DNA of 64,000 bases from Candidatus Woesearchaeota archaeon (GTDB lineage: Archaea > Nanobdellota > Nanobdellia > Pacearchaeales > GW2011-AR1). This document shows, piece after piece, positions 4,653-64,000 of the stretch. Below the pieces are notes generated by a model, which worked only from the letters and a program-made list of their open reading frames with translations, had not been told where the DNA came from and ran no database searches. Location of the stretch: assembly GCA_964408235.1 (NCBI GenBank), contig CAYOYN010000002.1, positions 44,459 through 108,458 on the forward strand. Direction: 5' to 3'. Numbering within the stretch: position 1 is the stretch's first letter; each line of letters opens with the position of its first letter. Made by a program: the position numbers and the translations under genes.

Positions 4653-4725
4653 GGCTATGTAGTTCAGTGGTAGAACACTGCTCTCATAAGGCAGGGGTCG
4701 AGAGTTCAATTCTCTCCATAGCCAT
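4653..4725 (+). tRNA. tRNA-Met (anticodon CAT); could be tRNA-Ile2
   Basis: Acceptor GGCTATG/CATAGCC, anticodon loop CTCATAA, T arm GAGAG-TTCAATT-CTCTC. Not initiator-like, because the 5' end is not AGCGGG. Confidence 0.8.
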
Positions 4726-4973
4726 CAAGAATATGAGGTACTTTCAGAAACGTCGCTTTCCTTTCTTACTTTAACTACAGGGTTTTCACGAGCAATTCTT
4801 TCAGCTTTCTTTAATCTTGCAATGTAACCTGCTATCTTATTTCTTACTTTTTTAGAGGGCATTGTTCTTCCAAGAATTATTTTATTAGGGGCAAAATCTT
4901 CTGCAAATGAAGCTTCTTTTACCATGAGCTCCTTGCTAGCTCTTTTAACCATTAATTGTTTTATTCTACCCAT
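4725..4973 (-). CDS. rps17e: Ribosomal protein S17e
   Basis: Starts MGRIKQ and contains SKKVRNKIAGYI, the S17e signature. Confidence 0.8.
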   Translation of the reverse strand: MGRIKQLMVKRASKELMVKEASFAEDFAPNKIILGRTMPSKKVRNKIAGYIARLKKAERIARENPVVKVRKESDVSESTSYS

Positions 4974-5014
4974 ATGACTGAGCTTGTTATTGAGGCTTTT
5001 TAAGGCTTTTGGAC

Positions 5015-5923
5015 TTAGAAATTGATCTTTTGATGTTTAATCAAATTAGACCATTCCTTATAATATTCTAATGCTTTTTTATCTATCTCGCCAGGGCTTA
5101 GAATTAATGCAGGCATTTTTTCTGATTGAGCTTTCTGTAGCGTAGAGACTAAATCTTCTAAAGTTATCTTTTTCTTATCTTTTACTGTTAAATATAGTTC
5201 TTGAGCGCCTAAATTTGTATTTAATTTTATTTTTGCGCTAAACTCTTTCTTTTTTGATAGGATTTCTTTTATGACTTCATATTCTCTTTCAGATAAGATT
5301 TTTTTTACATTATCTAAGAATGTGGATGACGTTTCTTTTTTCAATTTTTCCTTTACTGTTGTCTTTTCTTGAATTGTCTTTTCTAGTTGAATTTCATTCA
5401 ATAATTCCTTTGTTTGATCTTTTTCTACTTTTTTTTCAATTTCCTTAACTTCTTGTTTTTTAGGGGAAATTATTTTTTCGATTAACTCTTTTGTTTTATC
5501 GTTTGATAATGTATGAATTTTCCAAAAAGTTTTCTCTTGACTATTATCTATTATTTTTACAGGTATTGCAAAGTCTTTTATGCTTCTTAACGCCACCCGG
5601 ATTGCAGGTTCTTGTTCTGCATCTTCTAAAATTTCATTTTGTTTTAATAATTTAAATGCTTCTTTTTCTTTATGGTTTAAATATTCTGTAAATCTTTGTA
5701 ATTGTTCTTCTTGGCCCGGAATAAAATATAGAGGTGAGCCTCCTACTCGCATACTGCTTAATTTTAATTTTTGTTCTCCTACCAATTCTGACATAAATGC
5801 TGCTGTAAATATATTATTTTGACCTATTATGCTAGCAACTCTTACAGGGAATTCAGGACCTCTTTCTTGGATTACTTTAATAATTCTATTTTTTGTTTCT
5901 AGAACTTTCTGCATATCAGGCAT
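5015..5923 (-). CDS. Hypothetical protein with an N-terminal winged-helix-like domain, a Lys/Glu-rich linker and a C-terminal helical domain
   Basis: 302 aa; family not recognised. Not TFE, which is found elsewhere in the window. Confidence 0.4.
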   Translation of the reverse strand: MPDMQKVLETKNRIIKVIQERGPEFPVRVASIIGQNNIFTAAFMSELVGEQKLKLSSMRVGGSPLYFIPGQEEQLQRFTEYLNHKEKEAFKLLKQNEILEDAEQEPAIRVALRSIKDFAIPVKIIDNSQEKTFWKIHTLSNDKTKELIEKIISPKKQEVKEIEKKVEKDQTKELLNEIQLEKTIQEKTTVKEKLKKETSSTFLDNVKKILSEREYEVIKEILSKKKEFSAKIKLNTNLGAQELYLTVKDKKKITLEDLVSTLQKAQSEKMPALILSPGEIDKKALEYYKEWSNLIKHQKINF

Positions 5924-5963
5924 ATATGTGGGACAAGATTGTTTGTTATAAAGATTGCTGTAA

Positions 5964-6476
5964 TTAAGGCTTTAACCAAGATACCTCGTAGTATAAAACA
6001 TCATTTTCATCATCAACTATGGCTATAAGGAGTTTTTTCTTAGTTGAATGGGCTACTCGGTTCTTTGCAGCAAAATCGTGCCATGTATGTGGCTCTGATT
6101 CTCTAACTGCATATGCTAACCATAATGCATGATCTTGGCCGAATTGACTGTTTTTTTTATAAATTCGAAAATCTGCTCCGAATTTTAGGGCAGTCTTTAC
6201 TATGTATCCTTTTTCTCTTAGATTTTCAAAAACAGAGAGTTTTGTTTCAATTCTTTTGTCATTTTTCTTTGCTAGAGATATTGCTTTGTTAAAATCAATT
6301 TCTTTATTTTTGAAGTATAATGTTAATTTCTTTTTATTTTGTAAAAATAATGCTTCTATCCAAGAGTATTCTATTCTATCTCTTACTTTCTCCCCAAATT
6401 TAGATTTTTCATATAATGAAAATGCATCGCTAGAAGTTGAATGTATTTTCTCGCTTGTGATGTGTGCGGTTATCAT
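5964..6476 (-). CDS. endA: tRNA-splicing endonuclease catalytic subunit
   Basis: GYIVKTALKFGADFRIYKK...H...ALWLAYAV matches the EndA catalytic-domain motifs (catalytic Tyr/His/Lys). Confidence 0.8.
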   Translation of the reverse strand: MITAHITSEKIHSTSSDAFSLYEKSKFGEKVRDRIEYSWIEALFLQNKKKLTLYFKNKEIDFNKAISLAKKNDKRIETKLSVFENLREKGYIVKTALKFGADFRIYKKNSQFGQDHALWLAYAVRESEPHTWHDFAAKNRVAHSTKKKLLIAIVDDENDVLYYEVSWLKP

Positions 6477-6510
6477 ATTGAGGCTAGTCTTTTTTGTTAT
6501 TTAAGTATTC

Positions 6511-7494
6511 TTAAAGGAAGAAGTTTGCTACTATAAGATATGTAACTATAGATAAAGAATCTGAAATAACTGTTCCAAATGGTCCTCCCCCTAAGGCAGG
6601 ATCTCCTCCTAATTTTTTGATTCCCAAGATTATTATAAAAGAACTTATTGTTGCTAAAGTTAAAGAAATGAAAGTTGCTAAACTTATTATCGAAGCTATC
6701 CCTCTAGCTTGCCAGAATGAAGATATTGTAAGAAATAGTAAGGCGCTCATCATCGAGGCTATTATCATGCTTATTGCTGTTTGTTTAATTACATATTTGG
6801 AGATTTTCAGATCTTTACCCATTACGGCTAAATCTCTTACTAAAAGAGTTTGTATTTGAGTTCCTAATGCGTCGCTAATATAGACTACAACTGGTATAAA
6901 AAATGCCAGAATTATATTATTTTCTAATGTATTTTCAAATAATCCTATAAATGCTGCTGTTGCTAGAATTCCTATTAATCCGCTGATAAGCCATGGAACT
7001 CGATGCACTACACTTTCCATTATTGGAACTTCCATCGTACTCTCATATTCCATGTGTGATTTATGAATACCTGCGAAATGGAAAGAATCTTTTGTAGAAG
7101 ATTGATTTATTATTTTTATTAAATTTTTAGAAGACACTACCCCTACAATTTTATCACTATCCACAATTGGAACTGCTTTTATTCCATGCCTAAGTGCAAT
7201 ATGTGCTACTTTTTCTGTTTCTGTTTTGGCTGAAGCTGTAATGACCTTTCTTTGCATGAATGCTTCTATAGGAGTTTTTGCATGAAATCTAAAGATGTCT
7301 TTAATTGAGAAAACTCCGATTAACCTTCTATCTCCTTCTATTACATAGATATAGTCCATTACTTCATAGAGGTTTGATTTCTTTCTTAGTAAATCATATA
7401 TTTCGGCAACTCTTTGGTTTTTTCTTACCGTTAAGAATGCTTTATCCATAATCTCTCTAACAGGCAATGCAAGAAGAGATACCCCGTTTTTCAT
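6511..7494 (-). CDS. MgtE-like divalent cation transporter (CBS pair plus membrane domain)
   Basis: Two CBS motifs (IGVFSIKDIF; VPIVDSDKIVGVVS) followed by about 5 TM helices. Shorter than canonical MgtE; the N domain is missing. Confidence 0.65.
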   Translation of the reverse strand: MKNGVSLLALPVREIMDKAFLTVRKNQRVAEIYDLLRKKSNLYEVMDYIYVIEGDRRLIGVFSIKDIFRFHAKTPIEAFMQRKVITASAKTETEKVAHIALRHGIKAVPIVDSDKIVGVVSSKNLIKIINQSSTKDSFHFAGIHKSHMEYESTMEVPIMESVVHRVPWLISGLIGILATAAFIGLFENTLENNIILAFFIPVVVYISDALGTQIQTLLVRDLAVMGKDLKISKYVIKQTAISMIIASMMSALLFLTISSFWQARGIASIISLATFISLTLATISSFIIILGIKKLGGDPALGGGPFGTVISDSLSIVTYLIVANFFL

Positions 7495-7547
7495 ACCTTA
7501 GTTAGGGTATTAGAAACTTTTAAATCCGTGCTTTTTTAATTATTATT

Positions 7548-10007
7548 ATGAAGACCGTGAACTTTTCTACGATTGATAAAAAATGGCAGAAAGAATGGGA
7601 AAAGTCAAAGATCTTTGAGTCTAAAGAAGACCGTAAGAAGGAAAAATATTACGTTTTAGAAATGTACCCCTATCCTTCAGCTCATGGATTGCATATGGGC
7701 CATGCATTCAATTATACTATAGGAGATATTGTTGCAAGATTTATGAAAATGAACGGTAAATCAGTTCTTCATCCAATGGGTTTTGATAGTTTTGGGTTGC
7801 CTGCAGAAAACGCTGCAATAAAGGAAGGAACTCACCCAAGAAAATATACTGATGTTGCAATAAAAAGATTTATTGAACAACAAAAAGCTTTGGGGTTGAG
7901 TTACGATTGGTCTAAAAAAATACAAAGTCACGATCCTAACTATTACAAATGGAATCAATATTTCTTTTTGCAATTTTTAAAAAAAGGTCTTGCTTATAGA
8001 AAGGAATCTCCTGTTAATTGGTGTTCAAAATGCGAGAGTGTTTTAGCAAATGAACAAGTTCATGATGGAAAATGTTGGAGGCATAACGATACAGAGGTAA
8101 TTGTTAAAAATTTAGAGCAATGGTTCATTAAAACAACAAAATATGCTGAAGAACTTTTGAGGGATGTTGATTCTTTGGACTGGCCTCAAAGGATTAAATC
8201 TATGCAAAAAAATTGGATTGGAAAGAGCGAAGGAACTGAAGTATTATTTGAAATAGAAGGAGAAAAATGGCCTGTTTTTACAACAAGAGTAGATACATTA
8301 TTTGGAGTTACTTTCTTAGTTGTTAGTGCTCAACACTCTAAACTTTCTGAATTAGTCACTAAGGAACAGAAGAAGCATGTTGATGCTTTTTTGAAAAAAG
8401 TCAAAAGTACTAAACAAGAAGATATGGACAAAATGGATAAAGAGGGAGTATTTAGTGGGAGTTATGCTATTCATCCTTTGACAGGTAAGAAAGTCCCCAT
8501 ATGGATTGGAAATTTTGTAGTTGCAGATTATGGGTCGGGCATTGTAATGGCTGTTCCTGCCCATGATTCTCGTGATTTTGATTTTGCTAAGAAATATGAC
8601 ATTCCATTAATTCAAGTAATAAAGCCTGTTAAGGTAGAACATGCAAAAAGTAAATTATTTGAAGATTTTGGAATTTTAACTAACTCTCATGATTTTAACG
8701 GCTTGACTAGTGAAGAAGCTATAAAACATATTCAGGTGGTTTTGAAGGAAAGAAAGCTTGGAGGAGCAGTTACAAATTATAAATTGCGCGATTGGTTAAT
8801 CTCTAGACAAAGATATTGGGGAACACCTATTCCTATAATTTATTGTAATGATTGTGGTGTTGTTCCAGTTCCGGAAAAAGAATTACCTGTTTTATTGCCT
8901 GAGAAGGTTACATTTGGAAAGGGGAACCCTCTTCTTACTAATGAAAAATTCGTAAATTCAAAATGTCCTACTTGTGGTAAGAATGCAAGACGTGAAACTG
9001 ACACGATGGACACTTTTATGGATTCTAGTTGGTATTATATGAGGTTTACTGATCCAACTAATAATAAAATGCCTATAAGTGTAGATTGTGTTAATTATTG
9101 GATGCCTGTTGATTTTTACAGCGGTGGTGCAGAGCATGCTTGTATGCATTTAATTTATGCAAGATTTTTTACAAAGGCTTTACGTGATTTGGGTTATTCG
9201 AAAGTTAATGAACCATTTGTAAAATTGTTTAATCAGGGAATGCTTCATGGGGAAGATGGTTTTGTTATGTCCAAATCTAGAGGTAATGGGGTCGATCCTC
9301 TTGATGTTAGTAAGAAGTATGGTGCAGATACATTAAGGTTATTTTTAATGAGTGTTGCTTCTCCAGATAAAGATTTTACCTGGAGTACTACAGGTGTTGA
9401 GTCCATGTATAAATTTGTTAGTCGTGTTTGGGATTATGCTCATAAGGTAAATTTCGAAAAATCTTCTGCTAGAATTAAGCACAAGTTGAATAAAGGGATT
9501 ATCCAGATTGGAGAAGATATAAAAAATATTAATTATAATTTGGCTGTAATTAAGTTGCGTTCTTTATTTGATAGTTTTGAGGATCAAATAGATAAGGCGG
9601 ATTTTGCAACCTACTTACAGCTTCTTTCTCCATTTGCTCCGCATATTGCCGAAGAGTTGTGGCACAATGTTTTAGGATATGATACTTTTGTAAGTGATAG
9701 TGATTGGCCTATCGCAGATAAAAGTAAAATAAATGATTCAATTGATGTAGCCGAAGAAAGTTTTGAAAAAACGGTTTCAGATATTCAGAATATCTTAAGA
9801 ATTATCAAGGAAAAAGATGGTAAAGATGCTAAACATATTTATCTTTATACTATTCCTCCAGAAGTAAAGAACTTTGATAAAGAAATATTATCTAAAAGGC
9901 TCGGGATTGATGTAAGCATATTTGCTGTTAACGATAGTAAAAAATATGATCCCTCTTCTAAAGCAACTAAGGCAAAACCTGGAAAACCTGCAATTTATGT
10001 AGAATGA
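7548..10007 (+). CDS. leuS: Leucyl-tRNA synthetase, archaeal type
   Basis: Class I HIGH-type motif (PYPSAHGLHMGHAFNYTIGD) and KMSKS motif (VMSKSRGNGVDP). Confidence 0.9.
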   Translation: MKTVNFSTIDKKWQKEWEKSKIFESKEDRKKEKYYVLEMYPYPSAHGLHMGHAFNYTIGDIVARFMKMNGKSVLHPMGFDSFGLPAENAAIKEGTHPRKYTDVAIKRFIEQQKALGLSYDWSKKIQSHDPNYYKWNQYFFLQFLKKGLAYRKESPVNWCSKCESVLANEQVHDGKCWRHNDTEVIVKNLEQWFIKTTKYAEELLRDVDSLDWPQRIKSMQKNWIGKSEGTEVLFEIEGEKWPVFTTRVDTLFGVTFLVVSAQHSKLSELVTKEQKKHVDAFLKKVKSTKQEDMDKMDKEGVFSGSYAIHPLTGKKVPIWIGNFVVADYGSGIVMAVPAHDSRDFDFAKKYDIPLIQVIKPVKVEHAKSKLFEDFGILTNSHDFNGLTSEEAIKHIQVVLKERKLGGAVTNYKLRDWLISRQRYWGTPIPIIYCNDCGVVPVPEKELPVLLPEKVTFGKGNPLLTNEKFVNSKCPTCGKNARRETDTMDTFMDSSWYYMRFTDPTNNKMPISVDCVNYWMPVDFYSGGAEHACMHLIYARFFTKALRDLGYSKVNEPFVKLFNQGMLHGEDGFVMSKSRGNGVDPLDVSKKYGADTLRLFLMSVASPDKDFTWSTTGVESMYKFVSRVWDYAHKVNFEKSSARIKHKLNKGIIQIGEDIKNINYNLAVIKLRSLFDSFEDQIDKADFATYLQLLSPFAPHIAEELWHNVLGYDTFVSDSDWPIADKSKINDSIDVAEESFEKTVSDIQNILRIIKEKDGKDAKHIYLYTIPPEVKNFDKEILSKRLGIDVSIFAVNDSKKYDPSSKATKAKPGKPAIYVE

Positions 10008-10049
10008 ATACTGGAAGGTTTAAAAAATCGATTTATTATTTTTTCTCCC

Positions 10050-10553
10050 ATGAAAATTTATCTTGTTTCCCCTGGCGAAAATGACTCAAGAAATCTTACT
10101 GATAATGGCAAATCCGATATTTATTCTCTAATTAGAAAACTAACCAATGACAAAATTAAGGTAAAAAGAATTTATGTCAATGGACATAATGTATCTAGGC
10201 AAACAGGCAGTATGCTGAGTAAGGCTTTTGAAGTTCCAATTGTAGGCGATGAAAGGTTCTCTGAAATAGGGAAGGGCGTTATTTTAGGAAGTTTTAACGA
10301 TCTTGATTTAGAAAACTTAAAATATGTAAATCTTTTTATTGATGAAATTGTTGCGAGAAAAAATGATGCCATAATTACTATAGGTGCAGGAGTTCATAGA
10401 GCTATAATTAGCAGGTTAACCGGATTGCCTTTGCAAGAAACAAGACACTTTTCTTTTAAACCTGCAGGAATTTCTACATTACATTATGATGATGGTACTG
10501 GAAGATGGAGAATTAACTCTCTTAACGATGTAAATCATTTGAGGCTTCCTTAG
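10050..10553 (+). CDS. Histidine-phosphatase (phosphoglycerate-mutase-like) family protein, atypical
   Basis: Fold-typical layout, but the catalytic RHG motif is replaced by SPGEN. The second-His region is retained (GAGVHRAII). Confidence 0.5.
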   Translation: MKIYLVSPGENDSRNLTDNGKSDIYSLIRKLTNDKIKVKRIYVNGHNVSRQTGSMLSKAFEVPIVGDERFSEIGKGVILGSFNDLDLENLKYVNLFIDEIVARKNDAIITIGAGVHRAIISRLTGLPLQETRHFSFKPAGISTLHYDDGTGRWRINSLNDVNHLRLP

Positions 10554-10714
10554 TTACATCTTTTTGTCTTTTTTTGGTGAAACTGTTTATAAATAGCTTA
10601 ATTGTTACTAAAAAGTTGTTTGCTATTTAATGATAAATATTCAATGAAAGATATATTATTGTTTGTTGTTTGTATATAAAGAAATTTAGTTTTTAGATCT
10701 TGGAGGTGATGGTG

Positions 10715-10870
10715 ATGACTAATTTAAACGGGCTTAAAGATAGGAGAGTTGTGGCTTTGGTTGAAAAACTTGAGGCTGTTGACTCTTTCTATGGTATAAC
10801 TCCTGAAGAAAGAAATGTCCTTGATGTTATCCATGGAGTCTCTGATTTAGCTGAAGAATCTGAGGAATAG
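10715..10870 (+). CDS. Hypothetical small acidic protein (51 aa)
   Basis: GGAGGTG Shine-Dalgarno 6 nt upstream. Not in the ORF track because it is under 60 aa. Confidence 0.3.
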   Translation: MTNLNGLKDRRVVALVEKLEAVDSFYGITPEERNVLDVIHGVSDLAEESEE

Positions 10871-10904
10871 GTATTTTTATTAACTTTATTTTTTTTAGGT
10901 TCTA

Positions 10905-11672
10905 ATGGATATTTCGTTTTTGATTTTAGCATTGGTTCAAGGGATTCTTGAATGGTTTCCTGTTTCAAGTTCTGGGCATATGGTCATTACAGAAATGTTT
11001 CTTGGAATTTCAAGCGGTCTTGAATTTGAAGTAGCCTTACATTTTGGAACATTAATGGCAGTTTTTGTTTACTTTAGAAAAGATATAGTTTATATTATAA
11101 GAGATTTGTTGCATGCTAAATTCAAAACCATTCATGCGCGTCTTGGTTTGTTAATCTTGGTTGCTAGTATTCCTGTAGGTTTTTTAGGTTTTATTTTTAG
11201 AAAATATTTTGAGCTATCTTCTAGTTTAGCAATTCTAGGTCTTGGATGGGGGGTTACCAGTTTAGTCTTATTTGCAGGAAGTTTTTCAAAGAATAGTTTA
11301 AGAAATTCTTCCTCTTTGAGTTATTCTAAGGCATTAGCTCTAGGTTTTGCACAGGTTTTATCTTTAATTCCAGGAGTTTCAAGAAGCGGTATGACTATTT
11401 CTTCAGGTTTGTTATTTGGGTTGAATGAAAAAGAAGCAATTAAATTTTCATATTTGCTTTCAATTCCTACAATAATTGGAGCTAATTTAGTCACTTTTGG
11501 AAATAAGGCTATTCCTTTTGAATTTTTATTACCTACAATTATTTGTTTTGTTTCTGGGTTAGTTTTTATGCATATTTCATTTAATTATGTTTTAAATAAC
11601 CGAAAAAATTTGAGGTGGTTTGGAGTTTATACTTTAATCTTAGGAATAATTTGTTTGTATTTTGCTTTCTAA
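10905..11672 (+). CDS. uppP: Undecaprenyl-diphosphatase (BacA/UppP)
   Basis: LEWFPVSSSGHMVI and GVSRSGMTISSGLLFG motifs; polytopic membrane protein. Confidence 0.85.
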   Translation: MDISFLILALVQGILEWFPVSSSGHMVITEMFLGISSGLEFEVALHFGTLMAVFVYFRKDIVYIIRDLLHAKFKTIHARLGLLILVASIPVGFLGFIFRKYFELSSSLAILGLGWGVTSLVLFAGSFSKNSLRNSSSLSYSKALALGFAQVLSLIPGVSRSGMTISSGLLFGLNEKEAIKFSYLLSIPTIIGANLVTFGNKAIPFEFLLPTIICFVSGLVFMHISFNYVLNNRKNLRWFGVYTLILGIICLYFAF

Positions 11673-11751: not shown

Positions 11752-13515
11752 CTATTCAACAATAGCCTTTATACGACGGACTCCTGCTGAAACTGAAGAT
11801 TGTTCTATTATTTTAATCTTGCCTATTTCTTTTGTGTTTTTTACATGCGGGCCTGTGCAAATTTCTCTGCTAAAGTATCCCTTTTCTTCTTCTTTATCTA
11901 CTACTGTGTAAACGCTTACTTTTTCTGGATATTTATGCCCAAATTCTCCTTTCGCACCAGATTCTATTGCTTCTTTATAGGTTAAATCTTCTGATTTTAC
12001 TACCAATCCCTTTTTCACCACTTTATTTACTAAGTTCTCAATTTTCTCTATTTCCTCATTAGTTAGTTTTCTATTGAATACAAAATCAAATCTTGTTCTT
12101 TCAGGGGTTATGTTGCTTCCTCTTTGTGCTACTTCTGGCCCTAGAACTCTAGATAATGCTTCATTAAGTAAATGGGTAGTGGTATGTAATCTTGTAGTTT
12201 TTTCGGAATGGTCTGCAAGCCCTGATTTGAATGCTCCTGCTGAAGTGGTTCTTGATAATTCTTGGTGTCTTTGATATTCTTCATCAAATCCTTTTTTGTC
12301 AATTTTAACCTTGATTTCATTAGCCATCTCAATAGTCATTTCTATTGGGAAGCCAAATGATTGGAATAAAAGAAACGAATCTTTTCCTGAAATGTTTTTG
12401 CTTTCAGATGCAATTTTTTCGAATTGTTTTGTTCCTTTTTCAATAGTTTTTCTAAACTTATTTTCTTCTTCCTCTAATTTTATTATGATGTTATCTTTAT
12501 TATCTTCTAATTCTTTATAATCGTTGTATATTTCAAAAATTGGCTTTATTATTTCCTTTGTAAAATTTGTTTCTATTCCTAATATTTTGCCGTATCTTAT
12601 TGCTCTTCTGATTAATCTTCTTAATATGTAACCTTGTCCAGTATTTGAAGGGTGGATTCCGTCTGCAATTATGAATACTGAGGCTTTTAAATGGTCTGCA
12701 ATTATTCTCATTTCTTTTTTATGATCTAAATATTTCTTTTTAGAGACATTTTCTACTCTTTTTATTATTGGCATCCATATTTCTGTCAGGTAATTATCGT
12801 CTAACTCGTTTAGAGCAGCAAGGGTTCTTTCTAGACCCATGCCAGTATCTACATTTTTTTGTTTTAGTTGAATATATTTTCCTTCTAAGGTTTTATCATA
12901 CTGCATGAAAACATCATTCCATATTTCTACCCATTTCGGATCTTCAGGATCAAAGTTTTTGGGAGCTTTTTTTCCGCTGTAAAAGAACATTTCTGTATCC
13001 GGTCCACAAGGGCCTGTATTTCCGGCTGGGCCCCACCAATTATTCTTTTTTGGAAGAAATGCTATTCTTTCTTTGGGCATTCCTAAAGAAGTCCAGGTGT
13101 TGTAAGATTCTAGGTCTTTATCTGCATCTTTATCGCCTATGAAGCAAGTTACTGCTAATTTTTCTAATGGTATTTTTAGGATTTTTGTTAAAAATTCAAA
13201 AGAATATTTTATTGCCTCAACTTTAAAATATTCTCCAAGGGACCAATTTCCAAGCATTTCAAAAAAGGTATGGTGGGTTGTATCTCCTACTTCATCAATA
13301 TCATCTGTTCTTACACATCTCTGTACATTTACTAATTTTTTTCCCAATGGGTGTTTTTGACCTACTAAATAAGGGACTAATGGGTGCATTCCAGCAGTCG
13401 TAAATAAAACAGTAGGGTCATTTACGGGAATTAACGAAGAGTTGGGAATCTCTTTATGAGCTTTTGACTTAAAAAAATCAATATATTTTTGAATTAGTTC
13501 TTGCCTACTTATCAT
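11752..13515 (-). CDS. alaS: Alanyl-tRNA synthetase, bacterial type, truncated (587 aa)
   Basis: N-terminal NDPTVLFTTAGM...RCVR...HHTFFEMLGNWSLGEYFK is the bacterial/eukaryal AlaRS signature; archaeal enzymes have RHLTFFEMMGHHAFN here. Editing-site HTTTHLL and CTGPHV are present, but there is no C-terminal C-Ala domain. Confidence 0.85.
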   Translation of the reverse strand: MISRQELIQKYIDFFKSKAHKEIPNSSLIPVNDPTVLFTTAGMHPLVPYLVGQKHPLGKKLVNVQRCVRTDDIDEVGDTTHHTFFEMLGNWSLGEYFKVEAIKYSFEFLTKILKIPLEKLAVTCFIGDKDADKDLESYNTWTSLGMPKERIAFLPKKNNWWGPAGNTGPCGPDTEMFFYSGKKAPKNFDPEDPKWVEIWNDVFMQYDKTLEGKYIQLKQKNVDTGMGLERTLAALNELDDNYLTEIWMPIIKRVENVSKKKYLDHKKEMRIIADHLKASVFIIADGIHPSNTGQGYILRRLIRRAIRYGKILGIETNFTKEIIKPIFEIYNDYKELEDNKDNIIIKLEEEENKFRKTIEKGTKQFEKIASESKNISGKDSFLLFQSFGFPIEMTIEMANEIKVKIDKKGFDEEYQRHQELSRTTSAGAFKSGLADHSEKTTRLHTTTHLLNEALSRVLGPEVAQRGSNITPERTRFDFVFNRKLTNEEIEKIENLVNKVVKKGLVVKSEDLTYKEAIESGAKGEFGHKYPEKVSVYTVVDKEEEKGYFSREICTGPHVKNTKEIGKIKIIEQSSVSAGVRRIKAIVE

Positions 13516-34358: not shown

Positions 34359-34431
34359 TGACCCCACGAGGAATCGAACCTCGATCACAGGATCCGAAGT
34401 CCCGTATTCTAATCCATTAAACTATGGGGTC
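34359..34431 (-). tRNA. tRNA-Arg (anticodon TCG)
   Basis: Reverse complement folds: acceptor GACCCCA/TGGGGTC, anticodon stem CGGGA/TCCTG with loop CTTCGGA, T arm CGAGG-TTCGATT-CCTCG, discriminator A. Confidence 0.8.
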
Positions 34432-54560: not shown

Positions 54561-54611
54561 ACGTCCCCTGCTGGACTCGACTTGACAAAAGACGTCCCCT
54601 GCTGGACTCGA
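54561..54611. repeat. Perfect 20-nt direct repeat ACGTCCCCTGCTGGACTCGA (54561-54580 and 54592-54611); the second copy is the 3' end of tRNA-Asn
   Basis: 20/20 identity, 11-bp spacer. Seen directly in the sequence. Confidence 0.85.
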
Positions 54612-54665
54612 ACCAGCGACCCCGCGGTTAACAGCCGCGTGCTCTACCTGCTGAGCTAAGAGGAC
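54593..54665 (-). tRNA. tRNA-Asn (anticodon GTT)
   Basis: Reverse complement: acceptor GTCCTCT/AGGGGAC (one G-U pair), anticodon stem CGCGG/CCGCG with loop CTGTTAA, T arm GCTGG-TTCGAGT-CCAGC, discriminator G. Confidence 0.85.
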
Positions 54666-57712: not shown

Positions 57713-58324
57713 TTATCCTAGATATCTAACTTTTCCTGGTCGAGGTTCGTATATTGCTCCTTCTTCTAAGAGTTTACGAATTTCTTGATTTATTGCTTCT
57801 GATTTTGCTTGAAGTTCTTCGGTTAGTTTTTTTATGTCTGCTCCACCATTTGCCTCTTCTCTTTTTATTATGTCGATTATTTTTTCCTTGATATCTGTTG
57901 ACTCTTTTCTATCCGATTCAGAGGGCTTATTCTTTTCATTCTCTAATTTTCTTAGAAGTAAGTACTCTGCTTGTTTTTTCTTTATTATTTCAGGAGTTAC
58001 ATAAATTTCCTTGTTCCACTCACGGATCATTCCTATAGCTAGAACTGTATCTCCTTGTTCGAATGATTTTAATTTTTCAATATCGTCTCCAAAAGTTTTT
58101 AATTTTATTTGGCCTGATGCATCATCTAGCGTAATTGAAGCGAACTTTTTTTCATCATCTTGAATAAATTTATCTACCACATTTGCAATCAGGTTTACTC
58201 TTGCAACATTTTTTCCATTTGTTTCTATAAATTTTAATTTCTCACCATCTGTAATTTGATTTCCTGCAAGTACATCTCCTATTTTTAGTTTAAACGCTGT
58301 GTGTCTTTTGAATTCTTCGGCCAT
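57713..58324 (-). CDS. OB-fold nucleic-acid-binding protein with a C-terminal winged helix (RPA2-like)
   Basis: Anticodon-type OB-fold pattern (VARVNLIANVV...ITLDDASGQIKL...GDTVLAIGMIREW) plus a C-terminal wH. Adjacent to mcm. Confidence 0.45.
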   Translation of the reverse strand: MAEEFKRHTAFKLKIGDVLAGNQITDGEKLKFIETNGKNVARVNLIANVVDKFIQDDEKKFASITLDDASGQIKLKTFGDDIEKLKSFEQGDTVLAIGMIREWNKEIYVTPEIIKKKQAEYLLLRKLENEKNKPSESDRKESTDIKEKIIDIIKREEANGGADIKKLTEELQAKSEAINQEIRKLLEEGAIYEPRPGKVRYLG

Positions 58325-58358
58325 TTTCTTTTTTATTTTGTTTGTTATTTAAGTTTTA

Positions 58359-60368
58359 TTATAGTTTCTGAATATAACCTGCTTTTGGTTTGAAAATATC
58401 TCCTGATTTAGAGAGTTGATTTATTGCATCTTCAATTTCTTCCTTTGTTAGCCTTTCTCCTATTTCTTTTTCTAATTCTATTGTAGGAATTAATTTGCCC
58501 ATTGATGCTTCTAACTTAGATATGGTATCTCTAACAACAATTATTTTATTTCTTTTTGAAGCGGGGATGCCTGTAGTTATTCTATCAACATCAAATGTTT
58601 GAGTCTCTTCGTCAAAACCTACTTGCATCATCGAATATTTTAATAGTTTTATTGCCCGTTTAGCGTCTTCTACTGCTACATAATTGCTTAATCTTATTTT
58701 AGCACAAGCTTCTGATAATCTAACTATTGCTTCTAATTGTCTTGCTGTAATTGGTATTGCCTTTACTTCTGAATTTCCAGATAGGGTTTTATTTCTTATA
58801 GAAATATAAAATTCTTTTATTTCTTCTGCAGCCTCATCTGTTAATTTAGGTTTTATTTTTCTTGCATGAGCTACATATTTTCTTAATAACATTGGAGGAA
58901 TTACATCTCTTTCAACTTGTTGTTTGTGCTCTTCTAGAACGTGAGAAGCGATTGCTTCATCTTGAGCCCTATTTGGCATATCCCTCAGTACAAAAATTAC
59001 ATCAAAACGTGAAAGTAGTGCTGGTGAAATATTAATTTGTTGAGGGATAGGAATTACTGGATCAAATCTTCCTAGCTTTGGGTTACCTGCTGCAAGAACT
59101 GAAGTTTCTGAACGTAATGTTGCTTGAATATTTGCTTTAGAGATTGTAACGGTCTGCTGTTCCATGGATTCATGCATAGTTGATCTATCGTGTTCATCCA
59201 TTTTTTCTATTTCGTCTATACACACAGTTCCTTTATTTGAAAGAACCATTGCTCCTGCTTCTAATGACCAACCCTTTAGGAATTCATCCTTTACAACTGC
59301 TGCAGTAAGTCCGGCTCCAGTTGCAGCTTTTCCTGAAACATAACGTCCTTTAGGAGCAATTCTTGAAACAAATTTTAGAGTTACTGATTTCGCTACTCCG
59401 GGATCTCCCACTAAAAGAACATGAATGTCTCCTCTTGTATTTCCGCCATCAGAACGTTTTTTCTTGACCCCTGAGAAAAGTTGTAATAGTATAGCTTCTT
59501 TTACTTCTTTAAAACCGTAAACACTTGGAGCGATACTGGCTGTTAGGCGTTCAAATGCTTGAGGATCTGAAGATATTTTTTTTATTTCAAGTTCATCTTT
59601 TTCATTTACTTCTAGATCGTCAAATGTTTCTTCTAAAGGGATTGCATTATTTGCTTCAATTGCCAGGTCAAATCTTGTAGATATTGAACCTTGTTGAAGA
59701 GGAACTGGAACTTCTTTTAATACTCCTATGATTTTTACTTTACTTCCAGGGGTTGTTCTATCTTCCATTTTTGGATCTACTAGGTCTTCTTTAAGAAATA
59801 CGTTCATTCTTCTTGGTTGTTCTCCTCCTTCTAAAGAGTCTGGAGATTCTTCAATAACTAATCTTTGGGCGTCAACCATTTCTTTAGATAATAATTTGAA
59901 TAAACCTTTACGTCCACAAGAACACCTTGAAGGTTCACGAAATTTTCTATCTATCTGTAAGACTGATAGAATGGCTCCGCAAGTAGGACACTCAAATCTT
60001 GCGTTTACTACTTGAGGTCTTACGTCTGAAGCTTGTCGGACTATCCCTTCTATAGTTATGAATTGATCCAGGTGTTTTGCTCTAATTTCTTTTATTTTTA
60101 TTTTTACTGAATCTGGAAGTGATGTAAATCTTATTCTTGGAGGTTTTGGTAAAAAACCTTGTTCTTCTAAACATATCTCTAAAAGGGCAATTATTTCTTC
60201 AGGAGTTTCTACAAGTTTTTCAGAAAGCATTGGAGAAAATTTAGATAATTGATGGAAATCTAATGGAACTACCTGATCATTTTTTACAGATCTAATTATG
60301 TCTTTTTTATTATTTTGGAAGAATTCTTTTGCTTCTTTTTCAAATTCTTGTTTCTTTCCAAGCTCCAT
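58359..60368 (-). CDS. mcm: MCM replicative helicase
   Basis: Zn finger (CPTCG...CSCG), Walker A motif GDPGVAKS, Walker B motif CIDEIEKM, the arginine-finger region, and a C-terminal wH. Confidence 0.9.
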   Translation of the reverse strand: MELGKKQEFEKEAKEFFQNNKKDIIRSVKNDQVVPLDFHQLSKFSPMLSEKLVETPEEIIALLEICLEEQGFLPKPPRIRFTSLPDSVKIKIKEIRAKHLDQFITIEGIVRQASDVRPQVVNARFECPTCGAILSVLQIDRKFREPSRCSCGRKGLFKLLSKEMVDAQRLVIEESPDSLEGGEQPRRMNVFLKEDLVDPKMEDRTTPGSKVKIIGVLKEVPVPLQQGSISTRFDLAIEANNAIPLEETFDDLEVNEKDELEIKKISSDPQAFERLTASIAPSVYGFKEVKEAILLQLFSGVKKKRSDGGNTRGDIHVLLVGDPGVAKSVTLKFVSRIAPKGRYVSGKAATGAGLTAAVVKDEFLKGWSLEAGAMVLSNKGTVCIDEIEKMDEHDRSTMHESMEQQTVTISKANIQATLRSETSVLAAGNPKLGRFDPVIPIPQQINISPALLSRFDVIFVLRDMPNRAQDEAIASHVLEEHKQQVERDVIPPMLLRKYVAHARKIKPKLTDEAAEEIKEFYISIRNKTLSGNSEVKAIPITARQLEAIVRLSEACAKIRLSNYVAVEDAKRAIKLLKYSMMQVGFDEETQTFDVDRITTGIPASKRNKIIVVRDTISKLEASMGKLIPTIELEKEIGERLTKEEIEDAINQLSKSGDIFKPKAGYIQKL

Positions 60369-60477
60369 TGAAAAGAATGGTTATGTTTGCTTTATATGAT
60401 TTATTGCATTTATTTGGATGGTTGTTTTGAACATGCATTCTCAATAAGCTTATAAAACTGATAATTTAGCTCTATCG

Positions 60478-62523
60478 ATGAAACTCAAGTTATTGTTAAT
60501 CTCTATTTTTTTTATTTTTTCCTCTCTATTAGTTAGTGCTCAAAATTTAGTTCCCGGGACAGGATGGACTGGAGTGACTGCTGTTCCTTCTGCTAATGGT
60601 TTTTCAGGACAGTACGGTTATGATGCTAATGTTATTGCTCACTGGGATCATGTGCCTTATCAAGATGCAGAAGGCACAATTAATCTTGGAATACTTGCAT
60701 ATCATATTAGTGGAATACAAAAAGTTTCATTTAGCGTCAATAACGGGCCATGGGTTGATGTTACATCTCCTAGTTTGAATCCTGAAACTGGCGTGGACGA
60801 ATACTGGGTAGTTCTTAACGAAAACTCTTTCCCAACTAACTTTGCAGGTAATGTTGAAGTTAGAGCAATCGCTTACCCAAATGTTGGGGCCCCAAAGGTT
60901 TTGCAAGGTACCTCTGTAATAAGACATAATAACTCAATGATTGTCAGTGTTGATAGGGCTGGCACCCTTCCAGATAATATAGCTTACGTTACAGTTGGTG
61001 GAAATGATGGAAATAATTGTTTGACTCCAGCTACATCTTGTGCAACTATTACTCGTGCAATGAATGCTATTGCTATTGCTGGAAATCTTGATGGTGCGGA
61101 AGTTAGATTGGGAGAAGGGGCTTGGACCTTACCTAGTAGCTCAGGCTTTAGTACTCCTACTAGATGGTTTACAATTACATCAATTACGGGCACAAATAGG
61201 GATAACGTAATAATTAACAGTTATGCTTCCGGTGCTGCTACATCTAAGTATAAACTTTCAAGGCTTTCTCTTTTGAGAGGGTCTAATCTTTATTATCCAA
61301 TGGGGGAAATTTGGATAGATAATTCTAAGATTTACAAACCAACTGCTTGGACTTGCGCAGATGGAAGTTACGAAGGTGGAGATATGTTAGGTTATGCTGG
61401 ACCAGAGGGCGGAAATGAATACCATGCTTATTACACTGATGTTTACATTAATAATGTTGGACACGGACCTTCCAACTTAATTTTAGGGAGAAATATTACT
61501 GCAGAGGTAACTAATGATGCACATGCTTCTGGAACTATTACTTTGATAAATTATTGGATAAAAAATGTTATCCAAAACTGCGGAGCTCATGCAGATTATT
61601 ATCAATTTTATGCAAACTATGATGATATCATAATTAAAGGCGGGGGGAATATTCAAGGAGGAAATCCGGTGACTAGAGGGTTGGCTACTAGCTCAGGAGG
61701 TTTAATTGATGTTGCAATAGATGGAATTAATTTGAGTTGGAACGGTTGGGTATTTTCTATTTGTGGTCCAAATGTAAGAAATATTATTCTCAAAAATTCT
61801 TACTTTAGTGGTTCTGGAAATTGGTGTGGCGAATCTCCTACTCCTGTTGCTTCATTTAATGCTATGAACATGGCTAATGTTTTAATTAAAGATAGTACTT
61901 TTAATTTTGGAAATCCTTACAATTTACCTCTTAATCTTATAACTTTACAACCTATCCCATCTCCGACTGTGACTTATGTTAATGGTAGTTCTCCTATTTG
62001 TTCTAACGGGGCGATTCAATTTTGTTCTTTACAACAAGGTGTTTGTTCCGGATCTCAACAGGTATGTACTGGAAATAATTGGCCTGGTTGCAATTATGCT
62101 TCTATTTCTAACTATCAATCTTCTGAAAGTTCTTGTGATTCTCTAGATAATGATTGTGACGGGGTTATTGATGAGGGCTGTCAAGTGGAGAATAATACTA
62201 CCCAAACTCAAGTTAGTTCATCATCTGGAAGTTCTTCTGGGGGATCCTCAGGATCTTCAGGGGGAAGTGGTGGTTCTTCAAGTAGTTCTTCTCAAACTAG
62301 TGGTCAAACTAAAACAATTTCCAATTCATCTAGTAGTGGAGCTTTAGAAGGAGAAGATTTGGGAGATAATTTAAACTTAGAATCCGATAATTTAGAAGCT
62401 CAACCAGAAGAAGAAAAATTTTCTAAATTTTTCTGGTTTGTTTTATCTGGTTTAATATTCTTTATCCTTTTAGTGGTTATTATATCTTTAAGATATCTTA
62501 AGAAAATAAATATGTATTCTTAA
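60478..62523 (+). CDS. Secreted surface protein: beta-helix-like repeats, MopE-like Cys motif, Ser/Gly stalk, C-terminal TM anchor
   Basis: Signal peptide; parallel beta-helix-like repeats; CDSLDNDCDGVIDEGC; SSSGSSSGGSSGSSGGSGG linker; terminal hydrophobic helix. Confidence 0.55.
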   Translation: MKLKLLLISIFFIFSSLLVSAQNLVPGTGWTGVTAVPSANGFSGQYGYDANVIAHWDHVPYQDAEGTINLGILAYHISGIQKVSFSVNNGPWVDVTSPSLNPETGVDEYWVVLNENSFPTNFAGNVEVRAIAYPNVGAPKVLQGTSVIRHNNSMIVSVDRAGTLPDNIAYVTVGGNDGNNCLTPATSCATITRAMNAIAIAGNLDGAEVRLGEGAWTLPSSSGFSTPTRWFTITSITGTNRDNVIINSYASGAATSKYKLSRLSLLRGSNLYYPMGEIWIDNSKIYKPTAWTCADGSYEGGDMLGYAGPEGGNEYHAYYTDVYINNVGHGPSNLILGRNITAEVTNDAHASGTITLINYWIKNVIQNCGAHADYYQFYANYDDIIIKGGGNIQGGNPVTRGLATSSGGLIDVAIDGINLSWNGWVFSICGPNVRNIILKNSYFSGSGNWCGESPTPVASFNAMNMANVLIKDSTFNFGNPYNLPLNLITLQPIPSPTVTYVNGSSPICSNGAIQFCSLQQGVCSGSQQVCTGNNWPGCNYASISNYQSSESSCDSLDNDCDGVIDEGCQVENNTTQTQVSSSSGSSSGGSSGSSGGSGGSSSSSSQTSGQTKTISNSSSSGALEGEDLGDNLNLESDNLEAQPEEEKFSKFFWFVLSGLIFFILLVVIISLRYLKKINMYS

Positions 62524-62568
62524 TTCAACAACCTTTATAAATCAACTTTTCGTCTCTATTTTGTAATG

Positions 62569-64000
62569 AAGAAGGGATTTTTCTTATTCGTAGTAATTGC
62601 TTTTGCAGTACTTTCTGGTTTTGTTTTTTATTTAGACTCTTATCTTGATTGTGGTTCTGTTGTTTGCCTTAAAAATTATATTACTGGAAACGTTGTTTAT
62701 GAAGAACAAGTATTACCTGTTACTGGAAATGTTATTGTTACTCCTGAAAATCAAAATTCCCTTGGAGGAATTTTTGAAAACTTAATTGAAACAATAATAA
62801 GTCCTTTTACTGGGGGATCAGGAGGTTCTGAATCTGATGGTTCTGTACTACTAGGTCCAAGTCATGTATTAACTCCTGGAACAGGATGGGCTGGGTCCAC
62901 ATCTACTCCCCCTGCTGTTGGTAATTCAGGGATTGCAGGATATGATGCTAATGTTGTTGCTCACTGGGACGAAGTTCCATTTAGAGATATTTCTACTACT
63001 GAAAATGTAGGGGTTCTTGCTTATCATATTAATGGTATAGAAAAAGTTTCATTTAGCGTCAATAACGGGCCATGGGTTGATGTTACTCAAAAAACTATAA
63101 ATCCTGAAACTGGTGTTGAAGAATATTGGGCGGTTTTGAATCCTGCTTCTTTTGATCCTAATGTTGTTGCGGAAGTTAGAGCAATAGTTTATCCTTTAAC
63201 TGCCGGGCAACCTAAAGTTCTGCAGGGAACTTCACCTATTGACCAAGATAGTTCTATGATATTCAATGTCAATCCTCCTGCAAAAGCAGTTAGATATGTT
63301 TCAACAAATGGAAATGATGGAAATAATTGTCTAACTAGCGGAACTGCTTGTCAAACTATTACTAGGGGAATTAATAGCATAGGTTCAAATCTTAATGGCG
63401 GAGAACTCAGACTCGGAGAGGGAACTTGGAGCTTAAATTCTGTTTCAGGAGTAAGCACTACAAATAGATGGTTTACATTTACTTCTTCGGAAAATGCAAA
63501 TCCTAACAATGTTATAGTTAGTCCTAGAAGTCCTGCAGTTCCTTCAAGTGGTACTGGATTTTATGTAAGGAATTTTAGAATCTTCAACTTAACTTTAATC
63601 GGTGTTCCAGTTGATCCAGGTGTTGAGTCTTATGTATGGATGGATAAAGTTAGAGCTACTTATTTTGGAGATGTAATCCCTACTGGAAGTTATAGTGCAC
63701 AAACTCCTGGCGGTCTTTGTTACCCTGGTGAATGGTATGGAGGTTATGGAAGTAGTCCAAGAGAAGGTTATATGACTGATTCTTACATAAATAACTCTTG
63801 TAGTTCTGCTTATGAGTTTACATTTATTAGGAATGTTTTTTCTGAAAGGACTGGATTTGGGTGGGGCGGGAGTTATACTACAATAAATTATACTGTTCAG
63901 AATATTGTTGGTAGTCTTGCGCCTGTTGGAGGTCCTGACTATCACGGAGATGTATTTCCTAGACAGCACGGCGATGGTATAATCTATGGTGGAGGAACTG
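62569..64000 (+). CDS. Paralog of the preceding surface protein; 5'-partial view, continues past the window end
   Basis: Open frame from ATG 62569 to 64000 with no stop. Shares the GTGW.G...GYDANV.AHWD.VP...LAYHI.GI.KVSFSVNNGPWVDVT...NPETGV.EYW module, including a 46-nt identical DNA stretch (60719-60764 = 63041-63086). Confidence 0.55.

Follow-up and report, generated by a model that had tools for sequence, protein, structure and literature searches.

Tandem, probably membrane-anchored surface proteins of a Woesearchaeota archaeon carry a predicted Ig-like and beta-helix head

Contact with other cells is essential to DPANN archaea, and the molecules that make it are largely unknown. The closest described proteins are those of Nanobdella, itself a DPANN archaeon: they are extracellular, Ig-like folds and a parallel beta-helix occur together in them and were seen only by structure prediction, and attachment to, or action on, the host envelope has been proposed for them. 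Here we describe two genes, A and B, both on the forward strand near the end of a 64-kb window (the whole stretch of DNA analysed, 64,000 nucleotides), which provide concrete candidates for such contact. Among genome records, the nearest are MAGs of Candidatus Woesearchaeota, which bears out the earlier impression of a DPANN-like cell. Proteins of this type are already known from DPANN archaea and are a kind of gene expected in such an organism. We judge it reasonably probable that A and B are membrane-anchored surface proteins whose head, composed of an Ig-like domain and a beta-helix, binds or cleaves a glycan of another cell or of the matrix, and that a 46-nt run identical between the two genes is mostly a matter of local conservation.

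Set against the published descriptions, A and B differ from the Nanobdella proteins in three features: 36–52 N-glycosylation sites are reported for the latter, whereas A and B are poor in sequons; A and B carry MopE-type Cys modules; and B has a QYGITWTF domain. Compared with the phage tailspike and tail-fibre depolymerases (for example KP34p57, 8bke; CBA120 TSP2, 5w6p; HK620, 2vji), A and B are cellular and, by prediction, membrane-anchored, have no recognised trimerisation or particle-binding domain, and share 7–14% identity with solved tailspikes. The PL31 alginate lyase (6kfn), the GH28 polygalacturonase (1bhe), AlgE4 (2pyg), RbmB (9ozd) and BT_1002 (5mqp) have no family-level sequence match to the head. 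GH28 enzymes are marked by the motifs NTD, DD, GHG and RIK; these are not evident in A and B, whose conserved set reads W-x-D, T-D, R-N and H-x-D-x-x-Q. PfbA, a beta-helix adhesin of Streptococcus pneumoniae (3zpp/4mr0), is alike at the level of fold only, being bacterial, sortase-anchored and without the Ig-like N-module.

Layout of genes A and B

Gene A (60,478–62,523; 681 aa) consists, in order, of a signal peptide, an Ig-like domain, a beta-helix, a Cys module, a Ser/Gly stalk and a C-terminal transmembrane (TM) helix. A TATA-like box, TTATAAAA, read from the sequence at 60,450–60,457, lies ~25 nt upstream of the ATG and suggests an archaeal promoter of its own and a leaderless mRNA. The signal peptide (aa 1–21, MKLKLLLISIFFIFSSLLVSA, followed by QN; 60,478–60,540) belongs to a hydrophobic segment of aa 1–26 and ends in a VSA-Q cleavage-type motif, at which it would be cut. 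The Ig-like N-module (aa 22–165; 60,541–60,972), where conservation within the family is highest, is followed by the right-handed parallel beta-helix (aa 166 to ~500; 60,973–61,977) and the Cys-rich module (aa 506–568; 61,993–62,181), and A contains 14 cysteines in all. The Ser/Gly-rich stalk (aa 580–621; 62,215–62,340) has an AF2 pLDDT below 50, consistent with disorder. Hydropathy places the TM helix at aa 651–671 (62,428–62,490), where AF2 predicts a helix of aa 647–678, and a basic tail, RYLKKINMYS, follows. The hydrophobic segments of A (aa 1–26 and 647–679) and of B (aa 1–27) agree with the extracellular, membrane-anchored topology proposed from the sequence, as do the stalk and anchor proposed for A. 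The hydrophobic N-terminus of each protein would serve as its export signal, and the C-terminal TM helix, on which a flexible Ser/Gly stalk stands, would anchor it in the membrane. A has a relative at 99% identity (P0001) and orthologs at 66–79%, and between strains A is under purifying selection (dN/dS 0.08).

Gene B starts at an ATG at 62,566, with a TATA-like box, TTTATAAA, apparent ~29 nt upstream (62,534–62,541), and its frame is open to the window end, giving the first 478 codons (62,566–64,000). The leader (aa 1 to ~95; 62,566–62,850) comprises a hydrophobic helix (aa 1–27), the sequence CGSVVC, two (I/V)TGNV motifs and a Gly/Ser linker; the 'ITG' motif is absent from the other ORFs of the window. 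Then come the Ig-like N-module (aa 100–241; 62,863–63,288) and the A-like beta-helix (63,289–64,000), which is cut by the window end and reaches ~aa 595 in L062, a 98.8%-identical strain.

A and B are tandem paralogs, as had been supposed: BLASTP aligns them at 44% identity over 400 aa (E 6e-86), and the homology runs past the N-module through the beta-helix. No further paralog was found within the window. The sequence-only reading had placed a conserved module of ~50 aa directly behind the signal peptide of both proteins. The shared module is there, with the size of an Ig-like domain of ~140 aa, and in B it starts at aa 100, behind the ~95-aa leader.

The full length of B is taken from the L062 scaffold, which has a 100-N gap. 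In that strain B (4,718–10,921; found via the cluster mate P0164) matches the 478 aa of the window at 99.8% identity and extends to ~2,067 codons; its C-terminus has an S/G stalk followed by a TM helix and a basic tail. B does run past the window, as predicted, and the suspicion of a pseudogene interrupted just beyond it is answered by the open frame in L062. The description of B as a second A-like protein gives way to that of a mosaic of ~2,070 aa, which is A-like only over aa 100–600 and in one Cys module and also carries the QYGITWTF domain. Word-indexed protein searches returned no close B ortholog (8–13 matches each, probably swamped by low-complexity words), and JGI metagenome scans gave no continuation of B. 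The QYGITWTF domain does not occur within the window and has no match in a PDB sequence search.

The Cys-rich module of A ends in CDSLDNDCDGVIDEGC (aa 553–568; 62,134–62,181). The MopE-like motif reported for A is therefore present, in the form C-x-D-x-L-D-N-D-C-D-G-x-I-D-E, but as a single copy whose match to PF11617 (Cu-binding_MopE), one partial repeat at 19.9 bits (E 9e-4), stays below the gathering threshold of 27 bits. By phmmer, aa 515–570 of A resemble hundreds of multi-repeat proteins; such relatives, with 6–16 copies, pass PF11617 at 97–277 bits. By this sequence likeness, the module counts as one MopE-type (PF11617) repeat. MopE itself has a copper site made of two His and a kynurenine (PMC3423442), so metal binding by a PF11617-type motif is only nominal. 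The module may serve as a disulfide-rich spacer that possibly binds a cation. The Pfam name of PF11617 itself describes the metal binding as 'putative'.

Fold, family and probable action of the head

Structure prediction and fold comparison show the head of A and B as an Ig-like domain packed on a right-handed beta-helix of the pectin-lyase-like fold, in accordance with the beta-helix-like region seen earlier. The predicted helix has the stacked, right-handed parallel coils of the pectin-lyase-like superfamily, and the N-module has the beta-sandwich of Ig-like folds (bacterial Ig-like/X1 Fn3-like modules). At the level of sequence, the head of A and B has no Pfam or NCBIfam match (Beta_helix, DUF1565 and the Pectate_lyase families included), aa 22–165 of A have no Pfam match (Big_* and fn3 included), and the PDB profile matches of the head are confined to a generic beta-helix N-cap motif. 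Among the relatives, four of 58 match DUF1565 and one of 58 is Pel9A-like. A match of the shared module to a characterised enzyme family had been named as the finding that would count against an adhesin; none was obtained for the head at sequence level in Pfam, NCBIfam or the PDB profiles.

Nine residues of the A beta-helix are conserved family-wide: Gly175, Asp177, Trp279, Asp281, Thr320, Arg338, Asn358, His371 and Asp373. In the Ig-like module, Trp56, Asp57, Gln62, His76, Glu108, Tyr109, Glu127 and Arg129 are conserved. Across phyla, Trp279 is invariant (100%), and Asp281, Thr320, Arg338, Asn358, His371 and Asp373 are retained at 86–94%; this set of seven matches no known PL or GH family signature of CAZy. 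We note that Asn358, Thr320 and Arg338-Asn339, which occupy equivalent positions of successive coils, could form structural ladders instead of being catalytic.

The folds closest to the head are those of polysaccharide lyases, hydrolases and phage depolymerases. A search of viral folds (BFVD) gave only generic, low-TM beta-helix matches, and A has no match in PHROGs. The head family is large and unnamed, with 2,599 cluster representatives at E ≤ 1e-3, and occurs in DPANN archaea, CPR bacteria, Planctomycetota, Bdellovibrionota and phages, with predatory bacteria among its carriers. It is present at 39 genome loci (Woesearchaeota, Paceibacteria, Zambryskiibacteria, Planctomycetota, Bdellovibrionota, Hydrogenedentota and others) and at 17 IMG/VR viral loci, of which the two checked are real phages. 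Family members are extended by CBM_6, CBM_35_2, Dockerin_1, sialidase-like CBM and Laminin_G_3 modules. The CBM6, CBM35, dockerin and sialidase-like CBM modules, together with the lyase, hydrolase and depolymerase folds, lead us to lean towards glycan recognition or cleavage.

The heads of A and B thus resemble sugar-chain-cutting enzymes and phage tailspikes, and probably serve to grip or digest the surface of another cell. The head would most likely bind, and probably cleave, a glycan on the surface of another cell or in a matrix (for instance an S-layer glycan, capsule or extracellular polysaccharide), acting in the manner of a phage tailspike depolymerase or of a surface-anchored polysaccharide lyase or hydrolase. 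Should a defined glycan prove to be bound or cut by the head, the head would stand for a new family of carbohydrate-active proteins and would mark partner specificity.

A pure adhesin, the role suggested by the sequence-only reading, in which the beta-helix is a rigid scaffold and the head binds a host protein or glycan without catalysis, is a less probable alternative that deserves some weight. It sits poorly with the relatives fused to CBMs and dockerins, the usual companions of catalytic modules, with polar residues that are invariant across phyla at 25–30% overall identity, with enzymes and phage depolymerases as the top structural neighbours, and with the abundance of the head family in free-living, polysaccharide-degrading Planctomycetota. 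Far more remote is the reading of A, B or both as structural, S-layer-type glycoproteins of the envelope and not interaction proteins. Surface anchoring, the Ig-like and fn3 domains and the Ser/Gly stalk would fit such a role, but archaeal S-layer glycoproteins are recognised by a high sequon density and an archaeosortase-type C-terminal signal, and neither is found in A and B: N-glycosylation sequons fall below the shuffled expectation (4 versus 8.9 ± 2.6 in A; 3 versus 5.2 in B), and NCBIfam detects no PGF-CTERM or other archaeosortase signal. Moreover, sister species carry different cassettes in B, which is unlike a lattice-forming protein, and the head family is also found in phages and in bacteria without S-layers.

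The 46-nt run identical between A and B

The first copy of the run, in A (60,719–60,764), encodes KVSFSVNNGPWVDVT and is identical at DNA level, as had been observed, to the second copy in B (63,041–63,086), both on the forward strand; the sequence is present only these two times within the window. The next longest identical run between A and B inside the window is 22 nt, and a second identical island, of 27 nt, is located in the Cys modules. Outside the 46-nt run the two genes are saturated (dS 1.14, 54% synonymous codon identity). RNA structure gives no signal at the core, with z-scores of +0.3 to +1.6 for both strands of both copies.

The explanation first offered, that A and B have recently undergone gene conversion or still evolve in concert, predicts a tract longer than codon usage would produce, and in this respect the run qualifies. 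All 13 of 13 degenerate codons are identical, rare ones included (AGC, 10%; GTC, 7%; AAC, 21%; GGG, 14%), and 14 identical codons in a row have a P of ~5e-5 under the codon usage of the window itself, or ~3e-4 at the empirical A/B synonymous identity of 54%. In addition, strain L062 shows the same full identity; at one codon the window A reads AAC, as B does, against AAT in strain L001 A and in all A orthologs; and the 27-nt island and short imported tracts elsewhere in A and B favour this reading too.

Conversion also predicts an excess confined to the pair within one genome, but synonymous identity over the same 14 codons is raised even between genomes that are unable to convert each other: 10 of 12 for B versus L005 A, 9 of 12 for A versus L002 A, and 7 of 11 for a distant homolog (L044), with flanks at ~50%. 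At this locally raised synonymous conservation (62–83% across all family comparisons), P becomes ~0.02–0.05. The gene-conversion reading is weakened because the elevation is seen in every comparison, between genomes included, and concerted evolution of the whole genes is contradicted by the saturation of the rest. We therefore regard recent conversion as unnecessary and rather unlikely. The peptide encoded by the 46-nt run is conserved more strongly than any other in the family, and the identity would mostly reflect such conservation of the local sequence; gene conversion would add little at most.

A fast-evolving locus downstream of MCM

At least three large genes for surface proteins lie in a row downstream of MCM, in an array that evolves fast. 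The domain content of this locus varies between sister species, whereas the neighbouring MCM gene is 98% conserved; in the comparison of the window with L005, dN is 0.174 for A and 0.016 for MCM at equal dS. The leader of B also heads the downstream gene in related species, at 80% amino-acid identity in L005 and 72% in L002, and this homology ends at about 62,815–62,850 of the window.

Comparison of the full-length proteins places a cassette site in B. Residues 1–99 of L062 B correspond to residues 1–100 of L005 B (80% identity), and residues 671–1452 to residues 1468–2274 (73.5% identity), while the intervening segments are unrelated. Between the conserved leader and the conserved C-terminal body, L062 B holds the A-like head and two fn3 domains; in related species this position is taken by other cassettes or left empty, and in L002 the leader is fused straight onto the body. 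A reading in which the B body had 'replaced' that of L005 and L002 was dropped, since L062 shows the A-like unit to be a cassette ahead of a conserved body.

A more far-reaching proposal, which we consider speculative and quite improbable as a whole, is that the MCM-adjacent locus is a modular host-range system, in which glycan-recognising heads are swapped by recombination into a site between a conserved export leader and an equally conserved stalk and anchor, the exact A/B islands serve as recombination anchors between the tandem paralogs, and the head, whose Ig-like module is unusually conserved, is a new polysaccharide-active enzyme family common to phages, predators and episymbionts. The heads named for this proposal are the A-like Ig and beta-helix unit, the QYGITWTF domains and LamG, and the recombination anchors are the 46 nt of the Ig module and the 27 nt of the Cys module. 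Such a system would be likened to the cassette exchange of phage tail fibres, but in an episymbiotic archaeon.

A strain-variable patch lies in a beta-helix loop of B (63,640–63,711), where the window differs from strain L001 by 16 nt and 7 aa in a gene that is otherwise 99% identical. With dN of 0.21 and dS of 0.19 against a background dS of 0.024, the patch looks like an imported tract, and with the patch left out B has a dN/dS of 0.086 between strains.

Genes A and B and their locus

The tandem genes A and B bring to light a widely distributed, unnamed head family and a giant gene with a variable cassette. Gene A (60478-62523, + strand) is an open reading frame of 681 aa, and gene B, from an ATG at 62566 on the same strand, stays open for 478 codons, up to where the window stops. 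As the sequence-only reading had proposed, the two are paralogs, with residues 17-390 of A matching residues 95-477 of B at 44% identity over 400 aa (BLASTP, E = 6e-86). No further copy was found by tblastn in the 64-kb window. Their common head is predicted to comprise an Ig-like N-module and a right-handed parallel beta-helix. The shared module, described at that stage as ~50 aa long and directly following the signal, in fact measures ~140 aa, with homology running on through the helix, and in B (hydrophobic segment at aa 1-27) it begins at aa 100, behind a leader of ~95 aa. The features claimed for A are in place, i.e., the Cys motif CDSLDNDCDGVIDEGC (aa 553-568), the Ser/Gly-rich stretch (aa 580-621) and the C-terminal hydrophobic segment (aa 647-679); another hydrophobic segment spans aa 1-26, and the protein has 14 cysteines.

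TATA-like boxes, read directly from the sequence, lie 5' of both start codons (TTATAAAA at 60450 for A and TTTATAAA at 62534 for B), each 25-29 nt from its ATG. In archaeal promoters, such a spacing is expected for leaderless mRNAs, and A and B would thus be transcribed separately as leaderless messages.

Upstream of A is an MCM helicase gene (58359-60368, − strand; identified by the Pfam families listed for its orthologs). The order MCM(−), A(+) and a large downstream gene(+) recurs in the near-identical strains' loci L001 and L062 and in the related species' loci L002/L003 and L005; in L004, MCM and A are present and the contig stops there. When one genome per GTDB species was scanned, the closest locus proved to be L005, from a Candidatus Woesearchaeota MAG. 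Between the window and L005, MCM (dN 0.016, dS 0.88, 98% amino acid identity) and A (dN 0.174, dS 0.98, 77%) have similar dS, so that A split over the same time as MCM, with protein change about 10 times faster. MCM and its adjacent OB-fold gene (57713-60368, − strand) have 98% and 96% protein identity to L005, with dS of ~0.8-0.9 and dN/dS of ~0.02, in sharp contrast to the adjoining surface genes. Candidatus Woesearchaeota is placed by NCBI in the kingdom Nanobdellati (DPANN group); a partial cluster mate of A in NCBI, MGV8130995.1, is labelled Candidatus Pacearchaeota, in conflict with the nearest genomes of the GTDB set, which are titled Candidatus Woesearchaeota. An Rfam scan of the window located five tRNA genes (563-637, 1378-1451, 4653-4724, 34359-34431 and 54593-54665) and no other RNA family at or above the gathering score.

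Gene B beyond the window and its variable cassette

The exact A protein is recorded from an NCBI contig of 112,676 bp. The continuation of B was read from the ENA scaffold L062, reached via P0164, a cluster mate of A, and 98.8% identical to window 60616-64000. The L062 B gene (4718-10921) comprises 2,067 open codons with one 100-N scaffold gap, and its first 478 residues differ from the window's B only by N72S. The earlier concern that B might be a pseudogene is unsupported, given this open frame; outside one patch, dN/dS between strains is 0.086, indicating purifying selection. L062 B consists of a hydrophobic signal and leader (aa ~1-95), the Ig-like module (aa ~100-240), an A-like beta-helix (to aa ~595), two fn3 domains (aa ~605-790), the domain Q(Y/N)GITWTF..CGQFVNGDWWV..YRRCCTAN (aa ~795-1305; hereafter QYGITWTF), Ig-like and fn3 domains, a MopE-type Cys module 57% identical to that of A (aa ~1697-1765), a further domain, an S/G stalk and an acidic region, and finally a TM helix with a basic tail. 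A third gene starts at L062 10980 and was read for 1,232 codons to the locus end (14675), the gene call in the record extending past it to 1,891 residues. It encodes a related leader, a QYGITWTF domain, a MopE-type module, and fn3 and TIG domains, making the locus an array of at least three surface-protein genes.

Comparison with L005 B revealed a conserved leader (L062 aa 1-99 and L005 aa 1-100, 80% identity) and a conserved body (L062 aa 671-1452 and L005 aa 1468-2274, 73.5%), separated by unrelated segments. This cassette holds an A-like head and fn3 domains in the window lineage, and two QYGITWTF domains, fn3 domains and a LamG domain in L005; it is empty in L002, where the leader is joined directly to the body. 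Homology of the leader at the nucleotide level stops at about window position 62815-62850. A QYGITWTF giant likewise comes after a head protein in L006, a distant Woesearchaeon, from which the pairing of the two gene types is old and the domain content fluid.

The QYGITWTF domain spans ~500 aa, is marked by the motifs Q(Y/N)GITWTF, CGQFVNGDW(W/Y)V and YRRCC(T/S)AN, and has no sequence match in Pfam or PDB. It is found once, twice or three times in a giant protein (L062 7100-8630; L005 12386-13870, 14159-15655 and 16865-18490; L002 9888-11507; L006 12997-14463) and, among the loci examined, was met in Woesearchaeota only, always beside a head-family gene.

The 46-nt identity and tracts between strains

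The 46-nt identity between A (60719-60764) and B (63041-63086) is exact, occurs nowhere else in the window and had been attributed to recent gene conversion or concerted evolution. The longest other identical A/B run in the window is 22 nt. The Cys modules share another exact island, 27 nt long. Fourteen identical codons, four of them rare, would arise by chance with P ~5e-5 under window codon usage and P ~3e-4 if the observed 54% synonymous identity of A and B is used, values that count for gene conversion. Yet these codons show unusual conservation whichever pair is compared, also between genomes: synonymous identity in the core is 9/12 for A against L002 A, 10/12 for both A and B against L005 A, and 7/11 for each against the distant homolog L044, compared with 33/69 (about 50%) for A against B in the flanking Ig-module codons. 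At this raised local rate P becomes ~0.02-0.05, and A and B are saturated elsewhere (dS 1.14). The run is complete in L062, has one mismatch in the A gene of L001, and gave no signal of RNA structure. The exact run stands, and a micro-conversion may have contributed but is not required to account for it; by these sequence comparisons, it appears to reflect mainly local codon conservation in a peptide that is the family's most conserved.

Short imported tracts are evident between strains. In B, 63640-63711 differs from the 99%-identical L001 by 16 nt and 7 aa, within a beta-helix loop just past the invariant W-x-D motif; dN and dS are both ~0.2, this dS being eight times the background of 0.024, and the patch looks like a tract imported from an unseen donor. 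Clustered differences from L062, i.e., 13 in 70 nt at 63852-63921 of B (all of them silent) and, in A, 5 within 19 nt at 60876-60894, suggest short-tract recombination between strains.

Structure, distribution and possible role of the head

An AF2 model of A, built with a 14-sequence alignment, is confident from aa 20 to ~450 (N-terminal pLDDT 80-95, falling to 70-90 over the body). The head belongs to the beta-helix fold class, its likeness to structural matches being at fold level only, as sequence identity is 7-15%. Neither the Ig-like module nor the beta-helix is recognised by Pfam or NCBIfam, and a head-family profile matched only the generic beta-helix N-cap motif in PDB (BT_1002 at E = 1.5e-4).

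In an alignment of 96 sequences, the Ig-like module is the most conserved part of the head, with 36/144 positions at least 85% identical against 18/~315 in the helix, where W279 (100%), D281, T320, R338, N358, H371 and D373 stand out. Within the module (60541-60972, aa 22-165 of A), A54, N101 and P134 are 100% conserved, and W56, D57, P60, Q62, H76, E108, Y109, E127 and R129 exceed 90%. Across phyla it is conserved far better than the beta-helix. Accessory Ig domains do not usually behave in this way, a hint that the module is central to function.

When 1.84 billion cluster representatives were searched exhaustively with phmmer, A matched 2,599 proteins at E <= 1e-3, in two classes: heads, matching aa 20 to ~480, and multi-repeat proteins, in which the match is confined to the Cys module (aa 515-570). 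Heads were found in other Woesearchaeota (one contig with three copies), in the CPR groups Paceibacteria and Zambryskiibacteria, in many Planctomycetota (the isolate Fontivita pretiosa among them), in Bdellovibrionota, Hydrogenedentota, Acidobacteriota and Chloroflexota, and in 17 IMG/VR viral contigs. Two phage homologs of the Ig-like module and helix start (L045 4800-6518 and L047 4806-6578, 31-36% identity) directly follow a block of primase, thymidylate-synthase and ribonucleotide-reductase genes, and the L045 protein weakly matches a PHROG tail protein. Some of 58 scanned members bear fn3, Big_7, Dockerin_1, CBM_6, CBM_35_2, Laminin_G_3, PKD, PG_binding_1 or sialidase-like CBM domains.

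Glycan recognition by the head, with cleavage probable, is the role we favour, on the strength of its CBM and dockerin partners, its enzyme-like neighbours and its conserved polar residues. For the mechanism, the nearest models are the tailspike depolymerases of phages and beta-helix lyases or hydrolases anchored at the surface. Extracellular Ig-like/beta-helix proteins of the DPANN archaeon Nanobdella have been proposed to bind the host wall or break it down. At sequence level the head matches no characterised enzyme family, and the earlier proposal that the proteins are adhesins is kept alive, in its pure form, by the absence of a known catalytic signature from the heads.

The Cys module of A (aa 506-568) is a single copy of a ~55-aa repeat, the C-terminal half of which corresponds to PF11617 (Cu-binding_MopE, 'putative metal-binding motif'). 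On its own, A reaches 19.9 bits against this family, under the threshold of 27, and relatives with 6-16 copies score 97-277 bits, so that the motif had been correctly recognised as MopE-like; metal binding by the module of A is only nominal. On the archaeal contig L044, the complete homolog P0005 (10001-11911, 636 aa) has a B-like 'ITGNV' leader, terminates inside a MopE-type motif and lacks a C-terminal TM helix; a toxin-antitoxin pair of VapB/ParE type (12189-12676) comes next.
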